From: Candidatus Heimdallarchaeota archaeon
Lineage (GTDB): Archaea; Asgardarchaeota; Heimdallarchaeia; JABLTI01
Direction of reading: 5' to 3'
Assembly: GCA_019056785.1 (NCBI GenBank)
Contig: DXJV01000029.1
Location: 59,615-123,614, forward strand
Length of the DNA: 64,000 bases
A model generated the notes under the pieces. That model was not told the DNA's origin. It saw only the letters and a list, made by a program, of their open reading frames with translations, and did no database searches. This document shows, piece by piece, positions 31,980 to 53,054 of this stretch; positions within the stretch are counted from its first letter, which is position 1, and every line of letters starts with the position of its first letter. The translations under genes were made by a program, and so were the position numbers.

Positions 31980-33428
31980 ATGAGTCAACATGGAACCAGT
32001 AATCTAAATCCGAAACAACTCGAAAAATTAGCCGAAAAAGCAAAAGAACTAGGATATGACAATCTGAGGTTTTTTGTCGATGATATTGACATGTTGTTGC
32101 GCCCGGCTGTTCTTTTGAAACAAAAAGATATGAAATATTTCGAGTTGGAAAACCTCATTTCCTTGCTAACGAGTAAAAATATTAGCCTGGGAATGGCGCC
32201 CCGGATGTTAAGTATGGTATCAAAATACGCTGAAAGAAATGAAGAATTAGAAGCAGAAAACGCAGAATTAAAGCAATCAAATATAACTATGCGAAGTAAA
32301 TACCAAACTGCTGAAGCCCAGGTAAAAGAATATCAAAAGCAACTTAAAGAACTCTCTGTTGGCGTCCAAGCTGATGCTAAAATCCGAGAAGAGAATATAA
32401 AACTTAGTGAAGAGAATAAGTATCTAAAAATCACAAATGAATCTCTCACCGGAGAACTAAAGAAAACCAAAGAAAAACTCGACGAGAAAATTGAAGAAGC
32501 AAATGATCTTGAAGTTGAAAATAGCCAGTTAGAATTAAAGATTAAAGACCTCCAGAGAGAATTGAAAGAATTGGAGTTGGAATATGAAGAACTAAAACGA
32601 GAAGGTATTGGTACCGATAAGACAAAACGACTCGTTGAGGACTTAATTGATGAAGTAGATGAAGCCTATAGTACTGTAGACGACCCCTTTAAGAAGGAAT
32701 TCTTGGCATTTATGGGTGTGGAATTGAGCGAAATCGTTGAGGGACGAACTATTACAAAACAAAAAATTCTCAATCAAATAGCGATTCATGCACACGAAAT
32801 TGAAAAAAAATTCGAGCCAAAAATAGCAGCTTTGCAACAAATGCCTGCCCGCAGTGCTACACCTCAACCGGTAATCAAAGAACCAAGAGAGGTTATGAAG
32901 AAAGAAGTTATTCCTGAACCCGTGAAAAAAACCGCTCCAGTTGCAGTTAAAAAAGGACAACCTGCTGAAGCGCCTTCAAAACAAAAGGCCAAGGAAGAAA
33001 CCGAAGACCATTATGTGAAACCAAGTGAATTCTTGAAGAAAAAAGGCATCATCGTAAGTAGTGGAAAAGAACCTGCAAAAACAGAAGAAGCGAAAGAAAA
33101 AGGTGAAGAACACGCAGAAAAAACACCTGCAAAACCCGCTACCACTGTTTCACGTTCCAAACGTAAATTTAAGAAGAAAGTGGAAATCGACCGCACACCA
33201 AGCCCTGAATTGATTCAGGTCTTTGACGTATTTATAAAATATCTTGAAGCTATAACTGACAATAAATCATTTAATGACCTGTGCGACAAAATAATCGAGC
33301 AACTTTATGAACACATTGGCTCTCCCGGCATGACACAAGTTTACAAAATAAAAAGTAGTGGCGTGAAAAGAAAACAATTATTGATCGACCTAATAAAACA
33401 GTGGAAAGTGAGACTGCCTGACCTCTAA
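31980..33428 (+). CDS. Long coiled-coil protein with a K/E/P-rich linker and a small C-terminal globular domain
   Basis: 482 aa. Residues ~95-230 are heptad-rich (ELEAENAELKQ...LELKIKDLQRELKELELEYEELKRE). Low-complexity P/K/E linker. C-terminal ~90 aa helical domain. Confidence 0.6.
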   Translation: MSQHGTSNLNPKQLEKLAEKAKELGYDNLRFFVDDIDMLLRPAVLLKQKDMKYFELENLISLLTSKNISLGMAPRMLSMVSKYAERNEELEAENAELKQSNITMRSKYQTAEAQVKEYQKQLKELSVGVQADAKIREENIKLSEENKYLKITNESLTGELKKTKEKLDEKIEEANDLEVENSQLELKIKDLQRELKELELEYEELKREGIGTDKTKRLVEDLIDEVDEAYSTVDDPFKKEFLAFMGVELSEIVEGRTITKQKILNQIAIHAHEIEKKFEPKIAALQQMPARSATPQPVIKEPREVMKKEVIPEPVKKTAPVAVKKGQPAEAPSKQKAKEETEDHYVKPSEFLKKKGIIVSSGKEPAKTEEAKEKGEEHAEKTPAKPATTVSRSKRKFKKKVEIDRTPSPELIQVFDVFIKYLEAITDNKSFNDLCDKIIEQLYEHIGSPGMTQVYKIKSSGVKRKQLLIDLIKQWKVRLPDL

Positions 33429-33475: not shown

Positions 33476-34123
33476 TTATAAGATAATCTGGATTTTCTGA
33501 TGGATCGCGTAAGAAGACATACCACCTGAATCGAAGCGAAGACGAATCAATTTAGACTTGTCTTGTCCGTGAATAGCAATGACTTTTCCGGTGACCTTAG
33601 TCTCACTTTCAGGATATTTTAAAATGAATTTTTTACCTATCAATGTCTTATGGTTATAGTCATCCAAAACTCTTGCAATTGCTTGATTGGTTTTTTGAAG
33701 CCTTTTGTCTCGTCGATAGCTAGTTATAATTGCGCTAATAAATTTGACTTTCTTTGATTTTGGTTTAGTGGTTGGCTTGGGTTTGGTTGTAGTGGAGGTC
33801 TTTGACTTTGTGCGTGTGCTTTTCTTTGTAGCGGTTGTTTTTACTTTTGGGGTGGTCTTTTTAGCCGTCGTTGGTTTTTTAGCTGCAGTGGTCTTTTTAG
33901 TTGTAGCCGGTTTTTTTGTTGTAGAAGTCTTTTTGGCTGGTGAAGTGCTCTTTTTAGTGGTAGTGGCTTTTTTTGTCGTTGTGGAAGTTTTAGTGGAAGA
34001 TTTTTTCGCGGGTGTTTTTTTAGTGGAGGTTTGTTTTGTAGATGCTTTTTTGGTTGTGGTTGTTTTAGCAGCAGGTTTCTTTGCAGAGGTGCTTTTTGAA
34101 GTGGTTTTTTTCTTTTCTGGCAT
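33476..34123 (-). CDS. rpl35ae: Ribosomal protein L35Ae with a ~125-aa N-terminal Lys/Thr/Ala-rich low-complexity extension
   Basis: The C-terminal 90 aa (IITSYRRDKRLQKTNQAIARV...GKVIAIHGQDKSKLIRLRFDSGGMSSYAIHQKIQIIL) align with archaeal and eukaryotic L35Ae (SYRR, GK(I/V)xxxHG, RxRFxxxxPxxAIGxxIxV). The N-terminal part is (T/S/A)KK(P/T) hexapeptide-like repeats. Confidence 0.75.
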   Translation of the reverse strand: MPEKKKTTSKSTSAKKPAAKTTTTKKASTKQTSTKKTPAKKSSTKTSTTTKKATTTKKSTSPAKKTSTTKKPATTKKTTAAKKPTTAKKTTPKVKTTATKKSTRTKSKTSTTTKPKPTTKPKSKKVKFISAIITSYRRDKRLQKTNQAIARVLDDYNHKTLIGKKFILKYPESETKVTGKVIAIHGQDKSKLIRLRFDSGGMSSYAIHQKIQIIL

Positions 34124-34201: not shown

Positions 34202-35605
34202 TTATTTTGCTATTTTCTTGTCCTCTACTGCAAGAAGGACACTCTCCAGCGAAATTAGAAAGTTCTCTATCTCACTTTTTTCAACAGTAATCAGTCGCCC
34301 GGGTTGATGAACGAGAATATTCCGTTTTTTCCGGACATTATTAATAGCTTCCTCTTGTTCTTTAGTTAAGAGGTCACGCTCGCGTAAGAATTGCAAGATC
34401 ATATTAAAATTGGTATAAATCTCCACAGGAGCACCGAAGCGTTCTATAAGGCTTTTGAATAATTGCTCTGCAGAACGGAAAAGAAAAACCAAAGCGGTAG
34501 CACGTTCTTCCTCTGAAATTTCGTCCCAATGTTTAAGACGGTTTTTGACATACTCAATATCCGTCTTTAAGGAAACGACCTCATGTTCGTAACTGAATAC
34601 ATGCCGAGCAATATCATAAAACGGGCTTTCAAAGAACCGGTCCTTTATTACGGCAGTTTGTTTTGCCGAAACTTTTAATTGGTCCAAAATCGGCTTGTAA
34701 ATGCGCCATGCTTGTTGTTTCGCAACAAAATTGTTGGCGTAATTTCTCAGCGCCTCTGATAAAGGTTCCTCGTATTCTTGCTGATAGATAGGATCAATCC
34801 GACGAGCGAAACGTCTGAGAGTGGTCTCTCCAACTAACCCTTCTATTGGGAATTGGCTAACAGCACGAATGTAGTTGTTTCTATTCAGCCGTTCTTCTTC
34901 ATTTGGCGGCATAACTATAGGCAATGTCTCAAGGATCAGTTTTCTTAATCTACCGATAGAATAGAAAGCAAGAAGGTCGCTGAGAAAAGTAAGAACAGTA
35001 AATAGAATAGTGAAAATGATAACATTCACAATATTATCAATTTTATCAAGAACTAAAAAGTCTAGAACAATTGGCCTGAAATGTAAATAGATAATGCCAA
35101 TCAAATCTGCCAAAGATAAAATGGACCAAATAATTGAAAAGAGAAACAAAGTCTCAAAACTACTTAAGAGGTTATTTTTTCTATTAACCTGGCTTTGGCT
35201 AATATATGAATCAATATATAGCTCACGCACACGGGCCACAAGCGGGGGAACAAGCTCCTTTTCAATGGCAGCACGAATCTTTTCTTTTTGGGTTCTTGTA
35301 AGGCTTGCTTCATCATCTGAGAAGATAAAAAGCTCGTCGATATTTTCTTTTAATTTTGACTCGTAATGTTTTCCAACGCCACTAATAAAGTAGATTAACA
35401 TTGGAGAAATCATGTAGATAAAAAGTGCAGGTGCAATCAACATTAAAGCCCAGAGAATAAAGCCCCAGTTGGGGGTTATTCCTTTTGCCAGAAGATAAAT
35501 AGCATAGACAATAAATTCCAGCACAATAGGAGCGTAGACTCCAAGAAGAAAGCGTTGATTGAATAAAGCATTGGTTATTTTCGACCGCCAGTTATTGGTT
35601 CCCAT
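34202..35605 (-). CDS. 4-TM membrane protein with C-terminal HEPN-like domain (Rx4H motif; DUF4145-like)
   Basis: 467 aa. Two TM hairpins (residues ~20-75 and ~150-215). The C-terminal helical domain contains NNVRKKRNILVHQPG, which matches R-x4-6-H of HEPN RNase-like domains. Confidence 0.5.
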   Translation of the reverse strand: MGTNNWRSKITNALFNQRFLLGVYAPIVLEFIVYAIYLLAKGITPNWGFILWALMLIAPALFIYMISPMLIYFISGVGKHYESKLKENIDELFIFSDDEASLTRTQKEKIRAAIEKELVPPLVARVRELYIDSYISQSQVNRKNNLLSSFETLFLFSIIWSILSLADLIGIIYLHFRPIVLDFLVLDKIDNIVNVIIFTILFTVLTFLSDLLAFYSIGRLRKLILETLPIVMPPNEEERLNRNNYIRAVSQFPIEGLVGETTLRRFARRIDPIYQQEYEEPLSEALRNYANNFVAKQQAWRIYKPILDQLKVSAKQTAVIKDRFFESPFYDIARHVFSYEHEVVSLKTDIEYVKNRLKHWDEISEEERATALVFLFRSAEQLFKSLIERFGAPVEIYTNFNMILQFLRERDLLTKEQEEAINNVRKKRNILVHQPGRLITVEKSEIENFLISLESVLLAVEDKKIAK

Positions 35606-35733: not shown

Positions 35734-37113
35734 GTGATCAAAAACGAAGAAACACTCATTAATATAGAAAAAGACCCCTTAATTAAAAGGGGAAGAAAAC
35801 TACTCCTCGAGCTAATCGCCACTGGCATTCAAGCAGCAGACCCTTTTAAAGCCGTACAAAAACATGTCAAATTGGAAGGAAGAACAATAAGAATCGCTAC
35901 CAAATGGGAACGAGATATCTCTTCTTTTGAGAATGTAATTATTGTAGGAGCCGGGAAGGCCTCAGCCAAAATGGCTTTGGCTCTTGAAAAAATTCTGGGA
36001 GAGGAAAACATCACAAAAGGCTTAGTAAATGTTCCATCAGAAACCGTGAGCAATTTAACTGGAACATCAAAAATAAGATTCCATCCCGCCGGACATCCCG
36101 TGGCTACTAAGGCTTCTCTCGAGGGGACTAAGGAAATCATTAAATTAATTTCAGGATTAACACGAAATGACCTTGTCATTTGTGTGATTAGTGGAGGCGG
36201 TTCTGCCATGCTGGAGCTGCCGATAGCAGGTATCACTCTCAACGATTTTTCCACTGTTTTTAATTTATTGACACAGAAAGGGGCAACTATTTATGAATTG
36301 AATGCCTTTCGCAAACATTTATCACAAGTGAAAGGAGGGCGATTGGCAAAAATAGCCCGGCCAGCGGAGGTTGTTTCACTAATAATAAGCGATGTTGTCG
36401 GCGATGACCTATCGACCATTGCTTCTGGACCCACTGCTCCAGATAAAACAAGCTGGCATGATCTAATGACAATTATGAAAAAATATGCTCTTACAGCGGC
36501 ACTTCCACAAACAGTAATACAGCTGATTGAAAAGGGCGTTAAAAGAGAGCTTGCAGAGACCCTTAGAGCAACCGACCCGGTTTTTATGCGGGTATATAAT
36601 TTCTTAATTGCATCTAATACACTTTCCTGTCATGCGATAAAACAGGCTGCCTTAGGAAAAGGTTTTACAGCGAGAATTGTTTCGACAACACTAACAGGTG
36701 AAGCCCGGTTAGTAGGAGAAAAGTTAGCCGAAGAACTCCTCCATAGTGAGAAAAACAATGTGCTAATTGCGGGAGGGGAAACTACAGTAACCATTACCGG
36801 AAAAGGAATTGGCGGACGAAATCAAGAGCTGGCCTTAGCCGCAGCAACACATTTGAGCAACAAGGAAGGGATTTTTTTTGCAGCGGTTGGTTCTGATGGA
36901 AAAGATGGGCCGACAGATGCCGCAGGAGCAATCATCGACTATCAGACAATCTTAAAAGGAGTGAAGAAAGGATTGAGGGCTGAAACCTTTTTACTTGATA
37001 ATAATTCTTACGCTTTTCTAAAGGAAACAAATTCATTAATACTTACAGGACCCACCGGCACAAATGTGAGTGACCTCTTTCTGGGCGTACACCTGGCCCG
37101 AAAAGCCGAATAA
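35734..37113 (+). CDS. Glycerate kinase, MOFRL family (glycerate 2-kinase/hydroxypyruvate reductase-like)
   Basis: 459 aa. N-terminal IIVGAGKASAKMA (DUF4147) and C-terminal MOFRL motifs GGETTVTITGKGIGGRNQE and GSDGKDGPTDAAGA. Confidence 0.85.
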   Translation: MIKNEETLINIEKDPLIKRGRKLLLELIATGIQAADPFKAVQKHVKLEGRTIRIATKWERDISSFENVIIVGAGKASAKMALALEKILGEENITKGLVNVPSETVSNLTGTSKIRFHPAGHPVATKASLEGTKEIIKLISGLTRNDLVICVISGGGSAMLELPIAGITLNDFSTVFNLLTQKGATIYELNAFRKHLSQVKGGRLAKIARPAEVVSLIISDVVGDDLSTIASGPTAPDKTSWHDLMTIMKKYALTAALPQTVIQLIEKGVKRELAETLRATDPVFMRVYNFLIASNTLSCHAIKQAALGKGFTARIVSTTLTGEARLVGEKLAEELLHSEKNNVLIAGGETTVTITGKGIGGRNQELALAAATHLSNKEGIFFAAVGSDGKDGPTDAAGAIIDYQTILKGVKKGLRAETFLLDNNSYAFLKETNSLILTGPTGTNVSDLFLGVHLARKAE

Positions 37114-37254: not shown

Positions 37255-38448
37255 GTGTGTTTAAAGTTGTCGAATTCGTCGTTGTATCAATATGCCTCTA
37301 AATATGCACAAAAAGCCTATGAACAAGATAAAGCTGGAAATTACAAAGCAGCACATCAAAATTATTTGAAAGCTGCAGAAGTGTTGCAACAGCTCATCCA
37401 ATTCACAAGCAATCCCCAATTAAAAAACATGTACTATGTTAAAGCAAAAGAATATCTTGCTCGCGCAAAGGAGCTAAAAGATATGGGAATGCAACCGGTA
37501 GAAGGGGGGAGACGGAGAAGCTCAAGAAAGGGCAGCCGGGGAGGTGACAGTGGAGGGGATGAAGAAGAGGATGAACTTGAAGAGGCTATCTCGGAAATTA
37601 TCATCGTGGAAAAACCCAACGTGAAAATGAGCCAGGTGGCAGGATTAGAAGAAGCAAAGAGAGCCTTGCGAGAAGCAATCATCCTACCAATGAAACGACC
37701 CGACCTTTTTAAAGGCGCTCGAAACCCATGGCGAGGCATCTTACTTTTTGGCCCACCAGGTACCGGGAAAACATTATTAGCAAGAGCAGTTGCAACAGAA
37801 GTAGATGCAACCTTTTTTAACGTGAGTGCCTCAAGTATTATCTCGAAATGGCTGGGAGAATCGGAGAAACTGGTTCAACAGCTGTTTGAAACAGCCCAGG
37901 AAAAACAACCCTCGCTCATTTTCATAGATGAAGTAGATAGCATTGCTTCTGCAAGAGGTGGAAGCGAACATGATGCAATGCGCCGTGTGAAAACAACTTT
38001 GATGACCCAGATGGACGGAGTAACAACAAAGAAATCAGACCGGATTGTAGTTATAGGTGCAACTAACCTCCCATGGGAACTCGACCCGGCCTTTCGAAGC
38101 AGATTTGAAAAGCGCATCTATATTAATTTGCCTGATTTTCCTGCACGAGCGAAAATTTTTGAAATCCACACAAAAGGAGTAGAAATCGACCAGACAGTCG
38201 ATTGGAACCTCCTTGCTGAGGTAAGCGAGGGCTATTCAGGAAGAGACATTCAGCTGCTCTGTAGAGAAGCAGTAATGATGCCGGTAAGAGAACTTGATAT
38301 TGCAGGTGCTTTGGACAATCCCGACATTAAAGCCAGGGCAGTAACAATCGACGACTTTATGTTAGCAATGGAGAAAATCAAACCCAGCGTTGCTCCTGAA
38401 GAACTTCTGAAGCACAGAGACTGGGCAGAAGAATTTGGAAGCGTCTAG
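37255..38448 (+). CDS. vps4: Vps4-like AAA+ ATPase (MIT domain + AAA ATPase + Vps4_C); ESCRT/Cdv ATPase
   Basis: 397 aa. N-terminal MIT three-helix bundle (YASKYAQKAYEQDKAGNYKAAHQNYLKAAEVLQQL...YVKAKEYLARAKELK), Walker A GPPGTGKT, Walker B LIFIDEVD, SRF second region of homology, C-terminal Vps4_C helix. Confidence 0.9.
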   Translation: MCLKLSNSSLYQYASKYAQKAYEQDKAGNYKAAHQNYLKAAEVLQQLIQFTSNPQLKNMYYVKAKEYLARAKELKDMGMQPVEGGRRRSSRKGSRGGDSGGDEEEDELEEAISEIIIVEKPNVKMSQVAGLEEAKRALREAIILPMKRPDLFKGARNPWRGILLFGPPGTGKTLLARAVATEVDATFFNVSASSIISKWLGESEKLVQQLFETAQEKQPSLIFIDEVDSIASARGGSEHDAMRRVKTTLMTQMDGVTTKKSDRIVVIGATNLPWELDPAFRSRFEKRIYINLPDFPARAKIFEIHTKGVEIDQTVDWNLLAEVSEGYSGRDIQLLCREAVMMPVRELDIAGALDNPDIKARAVTIDDFMLAMEKIKPSVAPEELLKHRDWAEEFGSV

Positions 38449-38570
38449 AGAAAAGATGCTCATAATTCTTACCAAACAAATAATTAATGAGGAAAAACAG
38501 TTAAGTAAAAACTACAACCAAAGTCTTAGTTACAATTGGCTACTGAAAAAGCAAACATGTGGGATAACAT

Positions 38571-39407
38571 ATGTCAGTAAAACAAAAGAAGAAGAAAACG
38601 AAAGCAAAAACAAAAAAGAAGACAACGCAAAAAGAGCAGACAGTACAAGAGGAGCAGCCGTTACAACAACAAGAACTGCAAGAAGAGAAAACACAACCTG
38701 CGAAATCCACCTTAGAGAGCAAACCGCCTCGCGAAGCAACTGTAACTATTTCCTTGATAGAAAACCCAGTCACAACAGAAGATAAGATTTACAATGCATT
38801 ATTACGGATAGAGCAGCTAATACAATCAGATGTAGCTATTTCCCGTGAGGATCTTTTTGACTTAGGAGAGGATGTTGAAAGACAGCTTTTGGAAATTCTT
38901 CCGGAATGGATTAATAAACCCTGGATGTATGTCACCCCCGAACACCAGAAACAACTCGATTCCTGGTGTGCAGATTGGTCCAATTTCATTATGGAATATG
39001 CCCGCATTAATATTAAACACATTATTCACATCGAAGAAGAACGAGCGAAATATCCATTCAATAATAAACAAATAAAGAAACGATTAGACAGAAAGCAATT
39101 TCAAACGATAGGTGATTATATAGTCGCCCAGGAGATGGGCATTTGGTGGGATAAGAAAAAAATTCGCCTCCGTCTCTATTGGCGAACATTGGATGAATGG
39201 GCGGACATTATTTATGAGTGGAGTTTGAAAACAGGGCGTGCGGCCGGCCCCGAAAGAGTCATGACTTTGCTAGATATTCAAGAGGCAGGCCAACCATGGA
39301 GCACCATACCGGTCGAGGACCTGAAACGAATTTTTGAGATCATGAAAGAAAAAGGATATATTGAATGGGCTGATAAAAAGAAAACAGCTATTGCTTTTAT
39401 TATCTGA
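38571..39407 (+). CDS. vps25: ESCRT-II subunit Vps25/EAP20 homolog (tandem winged helix) with Lys/Gln/Glu-rich N-terminal extension
   Basis: 278 aa. HQKQLDSWCADW...PFNNKQIKKRL...GIWWDKKKIRLRLYWRTLDEWADIIYEWSLKTG aligns with human Vps25 (RQKQLAAWCSLV...PLFNNVKLQRKL...LEWLDKSKSSFLIMWRRPEEWGKLIYQWVSRSG). The first ~60 aa are a charged low-complexity extension. Confidence 0.8.
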   Translation: MSVKQKKKKTKAKTKKKTTQKEQTVQEEQPLQQQELQEEKTQPAKSTLESKPPREATVTISLIENPVTTEDKIYNALLRIEQLIQSDVAISREDLFDLGEDVERQLLEILPEWINKPWMYVTPEHQKQLDSWCADWSNFIMEYARINIKHIIHIEEERAKYPFNNKQIKKRLDRKQFQTIGDYIVAQEMGIWWDKKKIRLRLYWRTLDEWADIIYEWSLKTGRAAGPERVMTLLDIQEAGQPWSTIPVEDLKRIFEIMKEKGYIEWADKKKTAIAFII

Positions 39408-51374: not shown

Positions 51375-52061
51375 TTATTTGGTTTTCGAGAGTTTTTTAT
51401 ATTCATCCAATTTTATCGAGAGCTTGATCATTGCATCGTTTAGTTCAAAAGCTTGGAAGGCAGTAATCAAGTCGGTTCGGGTTCGATTGACCAGATTCCT
51501 GGCAGAATCCAATTTTGTTCGCAATGGTCCCACCAACATTTTTGTGTAATCGACAGTGATCAATTCTGAGAACAAAAAATCCATGTAATTAAAGGCTCGT
51601 TGAGCATTTTCCATATCTCTCCGTCGCAACGAATCAAGCAGATACCGTCTTAACTCTCCTATCGTATCACTTGCAGCCAACATGTAACTTGTAAAGGAAA
51701 TCTCACATTCTTCCACTGAAGGGATCTCGTCGTAACGAATGATAGAGTTTATCATTATTGCCTCCCCTAATTCTTGTGCAGCATCATCTAATCCCCGCCA
51801 GCACTCGAGACTTTTTGTTCCTTCGACTCTTTTGCTCATCTCCTTAAAGAGCTTCTTTGCTTCCTTTATTTTTTCATCAGCAATTTTGAATTCTTGCCGG
51901 TGAACAGATTTTATCGCTTCACTACAGATTCTTATTAATCGTCGTTGCTTAGTAAGGATGATATCTCGAGACTTGTCCTCCTCTTCTAGGAGAAGTTTTA
52001 TATGATTCATTGATTCTTCAAATTTCTCTGTCTTCAATTTGGACAACTCTACTTTATTCAC
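51375..52061 (-). CDS. Translin-family protein
   Basis: 228 aa (the same length as human translin), all-alpha. AASDTIGELRRYLLDSL...AFNYMDFLFSEL resembles translin GVADLTGELMR...FINELDSGF. Confidence 0.55.
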   Translation of the reverse strand: MNKVELSKLKTEKFEESMNHIKLLLEEEDKSRDIILTKQRRLIRICSEAIKSVHRQEFKIADEKIKEAKKLFKEMSKRVEGTKSLECWRGLDDAAQELGEAIMINSIIRYDEIPSVEECEISFTSYMLAASDTIGELRRYLLDSLRRRDMENAQRAFNYMDFLFSELITVDYTKMLVGPLRTKLDSARNLVNRTRTDLITAFQAFELNDAMIKLSIKLDEYKKLSKTK

Positions 52062-52589: not shown

Positions 52590-53054
52590 CTAATCTTCTT
52601 CGTCAGGCAGGTCTGGAATTATTAAATTCTCATCGAAGTCTTCATCCCAATCAGGAAGATATTTATCTCCGGGAGGCAATAAACTTGGATTTTTAGCGAG
52701 AATTCGTTCTATCTTTTGGGCAATAAACACCAAAGTGATTGCTTGTGAAACATATGATTCTCCTTCCAACACAGCCATAACCAAGGCATTTTTTCCAGCA
52801 CTTACAGCAACGATGTGTCGATCACCCGGCACATTGATTTGGATATCTCTGACACCTTCAAATTTGAGCAAATCAGAAACATATTCTGAAATATGGACAA
52901 TACCGGAGGCAGCAGCACTGAGAGCTTCTTTAATATCCTCAGAATCGTTTGGTGCAAATGTTTGAATTGGAATGCCCGATCTCGAAGCAACGACGATTGT
53001 GTTTACACCTGTTGATTGTGAAAAATCATTCAGGATGGTTTCAATATCTTCCAT
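52590..53054 (-). CDS. Roadblock/LC7 (MglB-like) domain protein with acidic C-terminal tail
   Basis: 154 aa. TGVNTIVVASRSGIPIQTF...ALSAAASGIV...HIVAVSAGKNALVMAVLEG is the Roadblock/LC7 fold pattern. C-terminal DWDEDFDENLIIPDLPDEED. Confidence 0.7.
   Translation of the reverse strand: MEDIETILNDFSQSTGVNTIVVASRSGIPIQTFAPNDSEDIKEALSAAASGIVHISEYVSDLLKFEGVRDIQINVPGDRHIVAVSAGKNALVMAVLEGESYVSQAITLVFIAQKIERILAKNPSLLPPGDKYLPDWDEDFDENLIIPDLPDEED

Follow-up and report, generated by a model that had tools for sequence, protein, structure and literature searches.

An isolated vps4-vps25 gene pair in Gerdarchaeales, best read as a remnant of the ancestral Asgard ESCRT operon

Introduction

Clustered loci encoding the endosomal sorting complexes that are required for transport (ESCRT) have been described in Heimdall-, Hel-, Odin- and Lokiarchaeota (PMC9192718, PMC10936438). 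ESCRT-III and Vps4 are the components most tightly linked with Vps25 (PMC9192718), and vps25 is usually co-directed with vps4 and ESCRT-III (PMC10936438). A 64,000-nucleotide stretch of DNA from a Candidatus Heimdallarchaeota archaeon (assembly GCA_019056785.1, contig DXJV01000029.1, positions 59,615 to 123,614; hereafter the window) carries vps4 followed by vps25, with no other recognisable ESCRT gene beside them. What does such a pair represent: a minimal ESCRT module, as an original prediction made from the sequence had called it, or what is left of an ordinary cluster? We found that the pair stands alone and that its layout is conserved throughout its lineage, the Gerdarchaeales; the most plausible reading is that it is the longest-lasting remnant of the ancestral Asgard ESCRT operon, a lineage-specific layout of a known system.

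Identity of the two genes

The two open reading frames (ORFs) lie exactly where the original prediction had placed them, and Pfam together with a match to human VPS4B confirmed that the first encodes a Vps4 with MIT, AAA and Vps4_C regions. Its features are as follows:

37255..38448, + strand: vps4 gene, 397 aa from the GTG at 37255 (ORF call, Pfam, PDB match)
37288..37479, + strand: MIT domain, aa 12-75 (Pfam PF04212, E 4.1e-13)
37738..38127, + strand: AAA core, aa 162-291 (Pfam PF00004, E 4e-45)
38098..38100, + strand: Ser282 codon, at the position of yeast Vps4 R288, in the motif F-R281-S282-R283-F
38314..38439, + strand: Vps4_C C-terminal oligomerisation helix region, aa 354-395 (PF09336, E 4.2e-9)

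Some annotations start vps4 12 nt further downstream, which gives 393 aa. Pfam also found AAA_lid_3 in the 397-aa protein, and the AAA core carries all the hallmarks of the single Vps4 cassette: Walker A (GPPGTGKT, aa 166), pore loop 1 of the KW[LM]G type (SKWLGE, aa 197), Walker B (IFIDEVD, aa 222) and the sensor-1 Asn (GATN, aa 268). Human VPS4B (7l9x_A) was collinear over the full length (Vps4 aa 8-350 versus 7-361, 327 bits), and the protein aligned end to end with yeast Vps4 structures as well. A TACK CdvC-type identity was considered and rejected: the score against the NCBIfam CdvC equivalog NF041006 (320.8 bits, E 1e-95) fell far under the cut-off of 650, and the protein is therefore Vps4-type.

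The assignment of the 278-aa product of the second gene to Vps25 also held, with a Pfam ESCRT-II (PF05871) score of 70.3 bits against a cut-off of 27. Its sequence matched Odinarchaeota Vps25 (7pb9, E 1e-21), human VPS25 (3cuq_C, E 3e-9) and the ESCRT-II subunit entry 9uyv in the PDB. An AlphaFold2 (AF2) model built from 83 homologues returned the same 7pb9 crystal structure as the best Foldseek hit (target-normalised TM-score 0.84, root-mean-square deviation 1.7), followed by human 3cuq_C and yeast 1xb4 Vps25; the model thus supports the assigned fold, a predicted tandem winged helix. The gene and its parts, with confidence given as the predicted local distance difference test (pLDDT), are:

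38571..39407, + strand: vps25 gene, 278 aa (ORF call, Pfam, PDB matches)
38571..38720, + strand: Lys-rich variable N-terminus, aa 1-50, predicted disordered
38721..38882, + strand: clade-conserved N-terminal segment, aa 51-104, 81-94% identity across the Gerdarchaeales clade
38883..39404, + strand: tandem winged-helix core, aa 105-278 (AF2 pLDDT >95)

Isolation of the pair and conservation of its layout

We searched about 77 kb of the same contig, made up of the window, 4.9 kb to its left and 8.5 kb to its right. Pfam searches of all 55 window ORFs of at least 70 aa found no Snf7, EAP30, VPS28, UEV/UQ_con, ubiquitin or ThiF, and tblastn with nine ubiquitin-ESCRT proteins of the heimdallarchaeal genome AB_125 revealed no further ESCRT or ubiquitin gene in any Gerdarchaeales locus examined. 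Six custom hidden Markov models (HMMs; ESCRT-IIIA, ESCRT-IIIB, EAP30, Vps28, UEV and ubiquitin), built from Heimdall, Kari, Hod and Borr homologues, were then run against every six-frame ORF with 40 aa or more from the window, two contig-extending loci and eight other Gerdarchaeales loci; the best match there had an E of 0.6. On non-seed control loci the same models scored 1e-41 to 1e-132, and the other ESCRT-III paralogue was detected at 1e-7.

The original prediction had named ESCRT-III or Vps22 genes just outside the window as the finding that would count against it. On the two flanks (4.9 kb on the left, 8.5 kb on the right) precomputed Pfam annotation shows no ESCRT-III, Vps22, Vps28, UEV, ubiquitin or E1, and the predicted isolation of the pair from every recognisable ESCRT and ubiquitin gene is borne out by Pfam, tblastn and the custom HMMs alike. 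The closest other ESCRT gene lies more than about 42 kb upstream or more than about 33 kb downstream. Set against the Asgard ubiquitin-ESCRT cluster, the locus shares the adjoining, co-directional vps4 and vps25, but no Snf7-family gene lies within 10 kb of the pair here or in the eight other Gerdarchaeales loci, and no Vps22/EAP30, Vps28, UEV, ubiquitin or E1 gene lies near it. Nor does the window resemble a TACK Cdv locus, as Pfam gave no CdvA- or Snf7-type match among its ORFs of at least 70 aa.

The Vps25 is identical to RLI63034.1, RLI69500.1 and RLI72003.1, and the Vps4 to RLI69501.1 and RLI72002.1; these entries come from Guaymas Basin metagenome-assembled genomes (MAGs) labelled 'Candidatus Gerdarchaeota/Heimdallarchaeota archaeon'. 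These MAGs (B5_G9, B18_G1 and B33_G2) are listed as Gerdarchaeales (Eme et al.). A scan of one genome per species placed the pair in nine further loci, and more contigs were found in NCBI, JGI, ENA and Logan. More than 12 independent Gerdarchaeales assemblies share one gene order: TPR, coiled-coil, L35Ae-like, transmembrane (TM)-HEPN, glycerate kinase, Vps4, Vps25, S8 protease, TrmO, LeuRS. Across these loci Vps4 (82-87% identity) and Vps25 (76-87%) are the best conserved proteins, with neighbours at 47-76% and LeuRS at 66-76%. Tetranucleotide composition did not separate Gerdarchaeales loci from other Asgard loci and was therefore set aside as a means of assigning lineage. The genes are already deposited and annotated (at NCBI a homologue with 98% identity is named 'vacuolar protein-sorting-associated protein 25', and homologues from the clade have the like label at JGI), and Gerdarchaeales Vps4 is already in published trees.

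Comparison with other ESCRT loci

The original prediction had also held that the layout departs from the usual clustered Asgard loci, and synteny with the published loci and with those listed here agrees:

AB_125 (L014): Snf7-Snf7-Vps4-Vps25; then EAP30, UEV-Vps28, E1 (ThiF) and ubiquitin on the other strand
Hodarchaeales (L021, L030, L031): ubiquitin, E1, Yip1, Rab, UEV, Vps28, EAP30, Snf7, Snf7, Vps4, Vps25
Kari-like (L029): UEV, Vps28, EAP30, then Vps25-Vps4 divergent from Snf7-Snf7
Borrarchaeum-type (L020, GCA_019058535.1): phosphoglycerate-mutase-type gene, Vps4, Vps25; EAP30, VPS28, UEV, JAB, ubiquitin and RING 5-10 kb downstream

The AB_125 cluster (Hatano et al. 2022, PMC9192718) resembles the Gerdarchaeales locus in its co-directional vps4 and vps25, in matching domain architectures, and in a Vps25 with a Lys-rich N-terminal extension and an LPxW..PWMY entry into the first winged helix (WH1); identity between the two is 58% for Vps4 and about 35% for Vps25. 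Unlike the Gerdarchaeales locus, which has none of these genes within about 33-42 kb, AB_125 has two Snf7 genes directly upstream and EAP30, UEV-Vps28, E1 and ubiquitin directly downstream; its vps4-vps25 spacer is 17 bp rather than 122 bp, and its arginine-finger motif reads RRR rather than RSR.

The Borrarchaeum-type locus comes closer in layout: no Snf7 gene lies within 10 kb upstream of its Vps4-Vps25, and a glycerate-pathway gene stands directly upstream. The arrangement without adjacent ESCRT-III is therefore not unique to the Gerdarchaeales, and among Vps4 proteins from outside the clade the Borrarchaeum-type one is among the closest to that of Gerdarchaeales (identity 62% over the whole protein and 69% for the ATPase core). 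It differs from the Gerdarchaeales locus in keeping its EAP30, VPS28, UEV, JAB, ubiquitin and RING genes 5-10 kb downstream, in a 9-bp spacer and in RRR. The Kari-like layout is another rearrangement of the same core. On a separate Kariarchaeaceae contig (L023, 1-1271), what comes after the two Snf7 genes is not vps4 but TFE-alpha, which lies on the opposite strand.

Thus vps4 and vps25 adjoin and are co-directional in all five lineages, ESCRT-III adjacency has been lost in two, and the pair is therefore read as a persistent remnant. To the published picture this adds that ESCRT-III is the part that departs once the link is broken, while vps4 and vps25 remain together.

Among more distant systems, eukaryotic Vps4 (7l9x, 5uie) shares the MIT domain, single AAA cassette and C-terminal helix, and eukaryotic Vps25 (3cuq, 1xb4) the tandem winged-helix fold; the eukaryotic genes are unclustered, however, and the Gerdarchaeales Vps4 differs in having one arginine finger replaced. 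Vps4-family genes standing away from ESCRT-III have been described before (PMC10936438), but those are additional paralogues that evolve fast and fall outside the main Asgard clade, whereas the Gerdarchaeales gene, apparently the sole Vps4, is highly conserved and has kept its place beside Vps25. The TACK CdvABC cell-division system likewise uses a MIT-AAA homologue of Vps4, CdvC; unlike it, the Gerdarchaeales locus has neither CdvA nor CdvB in its neighbourhood, and its Vps4 is partnered by an ESCRT-II protein, which TACK archaea lack.

Features specific to the Gerdarchaeales proteins

A supplementary table lists one Vps4 per genome in seven Gerdarchaeota genomes (PMC10936438), and the vps4 of the pair is therefore apparently the sole Vps4 of its genome. 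Within the clade the MIT domain (82-95% identity) is as well kept as the ATPase core (86-92%), while the linker drifts (37-57%). Between Gerdarchaeales and other lineages MIT identity is 36-49%, compared with 32-45% among those other lineages, so the domain has diverged from them no faster than they have from each other.

The ATPase core carries a clade-fixed change. Residues 280-287 of Gerdarchaeales Vps4 read F-R-S-R-F-E-K-R, and RSR was found in 52/52 Gerdarchaeales-clade Vps4 sequences, as against RRR in all 77 other Asgard Vps4 proteins examined. In canonical Vps4 two arginine fingers stand side by side (R288 and R289 in yeast); here Ser282 aligns with R288. This placement comes from a match to residues 250-353 of yeast 5uie_A and allows for an inferred one-residue length difference in the loop before sensor-1 N277. 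As one of the two arginine fingers, yeast R288 takes part in coordinating ATP across the interface between subunits (PMC5413351), and a double mutant, R288A/R289A, shows neither oligomerisation nor ATP hydrolysis (PMC5392032). In Gerdarchaeales Vps4 the R289 equivalent and the preceding Arg are kept. Because of this, and of strong purifying selection, the enzyme is presumably active, possibly with altered kinetics or regulation.

The second specific feature lies in Vps25. The N-terminal extension noted in the original prediction is real, but alignment and the AF2 model put it at about 105 aa rather than about 60, and it is not peculiar to this protein. Extensions are the rule in Asgard Vps25, as already published: further subdomains at the N-terminus, some being steadiness-box-like, have been described (PMC10936438), Odin Vps25 was crystallised after removal of residues 1-58, and confidence is low over the first 80 aa of the AB_125 Vps25 model (PMC9192718). 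The AB_125, Borr, Hod and Kari proteins likewise open with a Lys-rich stretch, and the median length ahead of the W..PW motif is 81 aa among the 31 relatives in which that motif is recognisable.

What does set the Gerdarchaeales protein apart is the segment of aa 51-104, which is conserved across the clade as strongly as the winged helices and contains the invariant stretch KPPREATxTISLIENPVTTE. AF2 predicts one helix in the extension (aa 69-87, pLDDT about 66-81). In a representative search of 149 Vps25 relatives the KPPREAT motif was not shared: its two regex matches were a Gerdarchaeales-type fragment and a poor match. Judged from these sequences, the motif is the only Gerdarchaeales-specific part of the extension. 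In eukaryotic Vps25, N-terminal PPXY motifs bind Vps22/Vps36; that protein begins about 8-10 aa before W..PW, whereas Gerdarchaeales Vps25 begins about 112 aa before it, and its sequence contains no PPxY. Inspection of the N-terminal helix found no canonical MIT-interacting motif 1 (MIM1), (D/E)xxLxxRLxxL(K/R), either. In an exhaustive HMMER search Gerdarchaeales Vps25 formed a single 50%-identity cluster with its closest relative just 38% identical, and an alignment of diverse Vps25 sequences (A2) varied too much to serve as the seed of a metagenome scan.

One divergent Gerdarchaeales-like JGI contig (L019) carries, at 1798-2661, a Vps25 in which 13 aa (TPEHQQQLDSWCS) occur twice in tandem where WH1 starts, and the Vps4 on this contig lacks about 33 aa, Walker B included. 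These oddities may be an assembly error or a degenerate copy.

Weighing the explanations

We consider it highly probable that these are ordinary Gerdarchaeales Vps4 and Vps25 proteins, left side by side when the ancestral operon broke up and the other ESCRT and ubiquitin genes came to lie elsewhere in the chromosome. An ancestral Asgard order of ESCRT-III, ESCRT-III, vps4, vps25 would have been broken in Gerdarchaeales so that only the vps4-vps25 adjacency survived, with ESCRT-III, Vps22, ESCRT-I and ubiquitin genes now elsewhere. By homology, the Vps25 winged-helix core would dock on a Vps22 dimer and nucleate ESCRT-IIIB on the membrane, and the Vps4 MIT domain would recognise ESCRT-III tails, the polymer being disassembled with ATP. 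A normal, dispersed system is favoured, indirectly, because the MIT domain is conserved like the ATPase core and because Gerdarchaeal components are on record: Gerdarchaeia encode a UEV-Vps23 that is unclustered with ubiquitin (bioRxiv 10.1101/2023.07.25.550441), and the ESCRT-II-type protein NHJ49798.1 of Gerdarchaeota is listed, like their Vps4, in the Makarova supplement (PMC10936438). Every major ESCRT component is present in most Asgard lineages (PMC10936438), and the subunits have been described as near-universal in Asgard genomes (PMC12962969; Eme supplement). We infer that the partner genes exist elsewhere in Gerdarchaeales genomes and that the components are dispersed there, which was one of the two readings offered in the original prediction.

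Several observations weigh against so plain a reading. The pair departs from the canonical one, as one arginine finger has been lost throughout the clade and the vps4-vps25 spacer is both long and variable, and Gerdarchaeales ESCRT-III itself proved elusive. A search with the AB_125 ESCRT-IIIB protein gave 61 matches (Heimdallarchaeaceae, Kari-like, Hodarchaeales and two eukaryote-like sequences), none from Gerdarchaeales. A metagenome scan for two motifs conserved in Heimdall, Kari and Hod, NKxGA[RKQ][QA]AL and Q[LM]A[QEA]LE[AL]E, found no Gerdarchaeales ESCRT-III among the matches listed, which were Heimdall, Kari and Hod loci only. These ESCRT-III searches also missed the ESCRT-III of Loki-, Thor-, Odin- and Helarchaeota, however, and the negative for Gerdarchaeales therefore carries little weight. 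The motif scan of viral contigs gave no match, and we found no Gerdarchaeales ESCRT-III entry in the supplements of Hatano 2022, Makarova 2024, Souza 2025 or Eme 2023. Two archaeal groups among the ESCRT-IIIB matches outside Heimdallarchaeaceae were considered as Gerdarchaeales and rejected: the first is Hodarchaeales (a full cluster with Yip1 and Rab), and the second is Kariarchaeaceae, as its neighbour proteins cluster with sequences so named.

The same observations could be taken to mean that Vps4 and Vps25 form an autonomous sub-module that works without canonical ESCRT-III, on a diverged ESCRT-III or some other substrate, with the N-terminal segment of Vps25 perhaps recruiting Vps4. The order-wide isolation of the pair across about 77 kb, the lack of any Gerdarchaeales ESCRT-III among the matches listed, the fixed R-to-S change at the R288 position, the invariant Gerdarchaeales-specific motif in Vps25, and an adjacency that outlasts the link to ESCRT-III in two lineages would all fit. 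We nevertheless regard this as improbable: the MIT domain and winged-helix core are as constrained as in lineages that have ESCRT-III, no canonical MIM1 is legible in the Vps25 helix, and the ESCRT-III searches are insensitive across orders. We know of no organism with a MIT-bearing Vps4 that lacks ESCRT-III, and the literature has ESCRT components in most Asgard lineages and ESCRT-I and ESCRT-II proteins in Gerdarchaeia. Equally doubtful is the more specific proposal of a rewired ESCRT core, in which the sole Vps4, minus one arginine finger (S282), and a Vps25 with the clade-invariant motif would be directly coupled and, with no canonical ESCRT-III involved, act on a different substrate or on an ESCRT-III that has diverged greatly; were it true, the pair would be a natural 'ESCRT-II + Vps4 only' system.

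The constancy of the neighbourhood suggests a wider alternative, a composite system in which the pair is tied functionally to the glycerate-kinase-type enzyme, the membrane HEPN-like protein, the coiled-coil protein and the S8 protease. These neighbours are syntenic in all Gerdarchaeales loci, some archaeal ESCRT neighbourhoods include coiled-coil and HEPN proteins (PMC10936438), and a phosphoglycerate-mutase-type gene lies directly upstream of vps4 in the Borrarchaeum-type locus and 6 kb upstream in AB_125. The whole 20-kb region, LeuRS, TrmO and a PHP phosphoesterase included, is equally collinear, however, and the synteny therefore reflects general genome conservation. With neighbours on different strands and far less conserved (47-72%) than Vps4 and Vps25, and a probability of 1.2% for the coiled-coil protein against the ESCRT-IIIB profile in hhalign, such a system seems very unlikely. 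For the same reason the 'minimal ESCRT module' of the original prediction is at most a putative functional unit, since conserved adjacency alone defines no module when the neighbourhood is collinear across the order. The source is a MAG, and a chimeric contig might have parted the pair from its real cluster; yet the same order recurs on independent 12-443 kb contigs (one carrier has a listed length of 1.55 Mb), taken from different samples and from NCBI, JGI, ENA and Logan, so an assembly or binning artefact is excluded for practical purposes.

The current picture of Asgard ESCRT is left unchanged by these results, and the literature already notes that ESCRT and ubiquitin genes are dispersed in Gerd-, Kari- and Heimdallarchaeia. 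Two points are worth following up. One is the arginine-finger change, a clade-fixed natural variant for the study of Vps4 hexamer firing. The other is the vps4-vps25 link, the most persistent in the ESCRT locus among the five Asgard lineages: that it outlasts the loss of ESCRT-III in both Gerdarchaeales and the Borrarchaeum type points to selection for co-expression of Vps4 and the ESCRT-III-nucleating ESCRT-II subunit, or to direct cooperation between the two.

Spacer and flanking genes

The genes on either side of the pair are those of the original prediction: Pfam identified a glycerate-kinase-type gene upstream of vps4 and a convergent Peptidase_S8 (subtilase) gene downstream of vps25.

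35734-37113: glycerate-kinase-type gene (DUF4147+MOFRL), upstream of vps4 (Pfam)
38449..38570, + strand: vps4-vps25 spacer, 122 bp, AT-rich (sequence comparison)

The spacer measures 71-323 bp in Gerdarchaeales relatives (L004-L019), compared with 9-42 bp in AB_125, Borr and Hod. Just ahead of the vps25 ATG, at 38559-38564, stands a Shine-Dalgarno-like GTGGGA, and this element (GTGGGA/GCGGGGA) is the only conserved part of the Gerdarchaeales spacers.

Glycerate-pathway enzyme genes were seen near vps4 in three lineages: the gene at 35734-37113 here, and Metalloenzyme/PhosphMutase genes of the phosphoglycerate-mutase type in the Borrarchaeum-type locus (L020, 8628-9833, directly upstream) and in AB_125 (L014, 2714-3943, 6 kb upstream). 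This may be an old synteny trace or a coincidence.

Further upstream, all Gerdarchaeales loci encode a 467-aa protein (34202-35605, - strand) with N-terminal TM helices and a C-terminal HEPN-like domain; it carries an R-x4-H motif (RNILVH), and its Pfam matches to HEPN_RiboL-PSP, HepT-like and DUF4145 are weak yet consistent, recurring in 7-8 of the nine orthologues. Next to it, at 33476-34123 (- strand), a 215-aa protein joins a low-complexity N-terminus of about 125 aa, rich in Lys, Thr, Ser and Pro, to an L35Ae-like C-terminal domain (Pfam E 2e-4, under threshold); in its relatives the tail differs in length (144-215 aa). The 482-aa coiled-coil protein at 31980-33428 (+ strand) is syntenic in all Gerdarchaeales loci and belongs to no Pfam family; its N-terminal domain and its C-terminal domain of about 80 aa are both conserved and are joined by a Pro/Lys-rich linker. 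It was tried as an ESCRT-III-like candidate and rejected on the hhalign result given above.

Elsewhere in the window, a Roadblock/LC7-like protein (52590-53054, - strand; Pfam E 1e-4, just under threshold) adjoins a Translin-like helical protein (51375-52061, - strand; E 5e-4). Both are typical weakly scoring Asgard candidates for 'eukaryotic signature' proteins.

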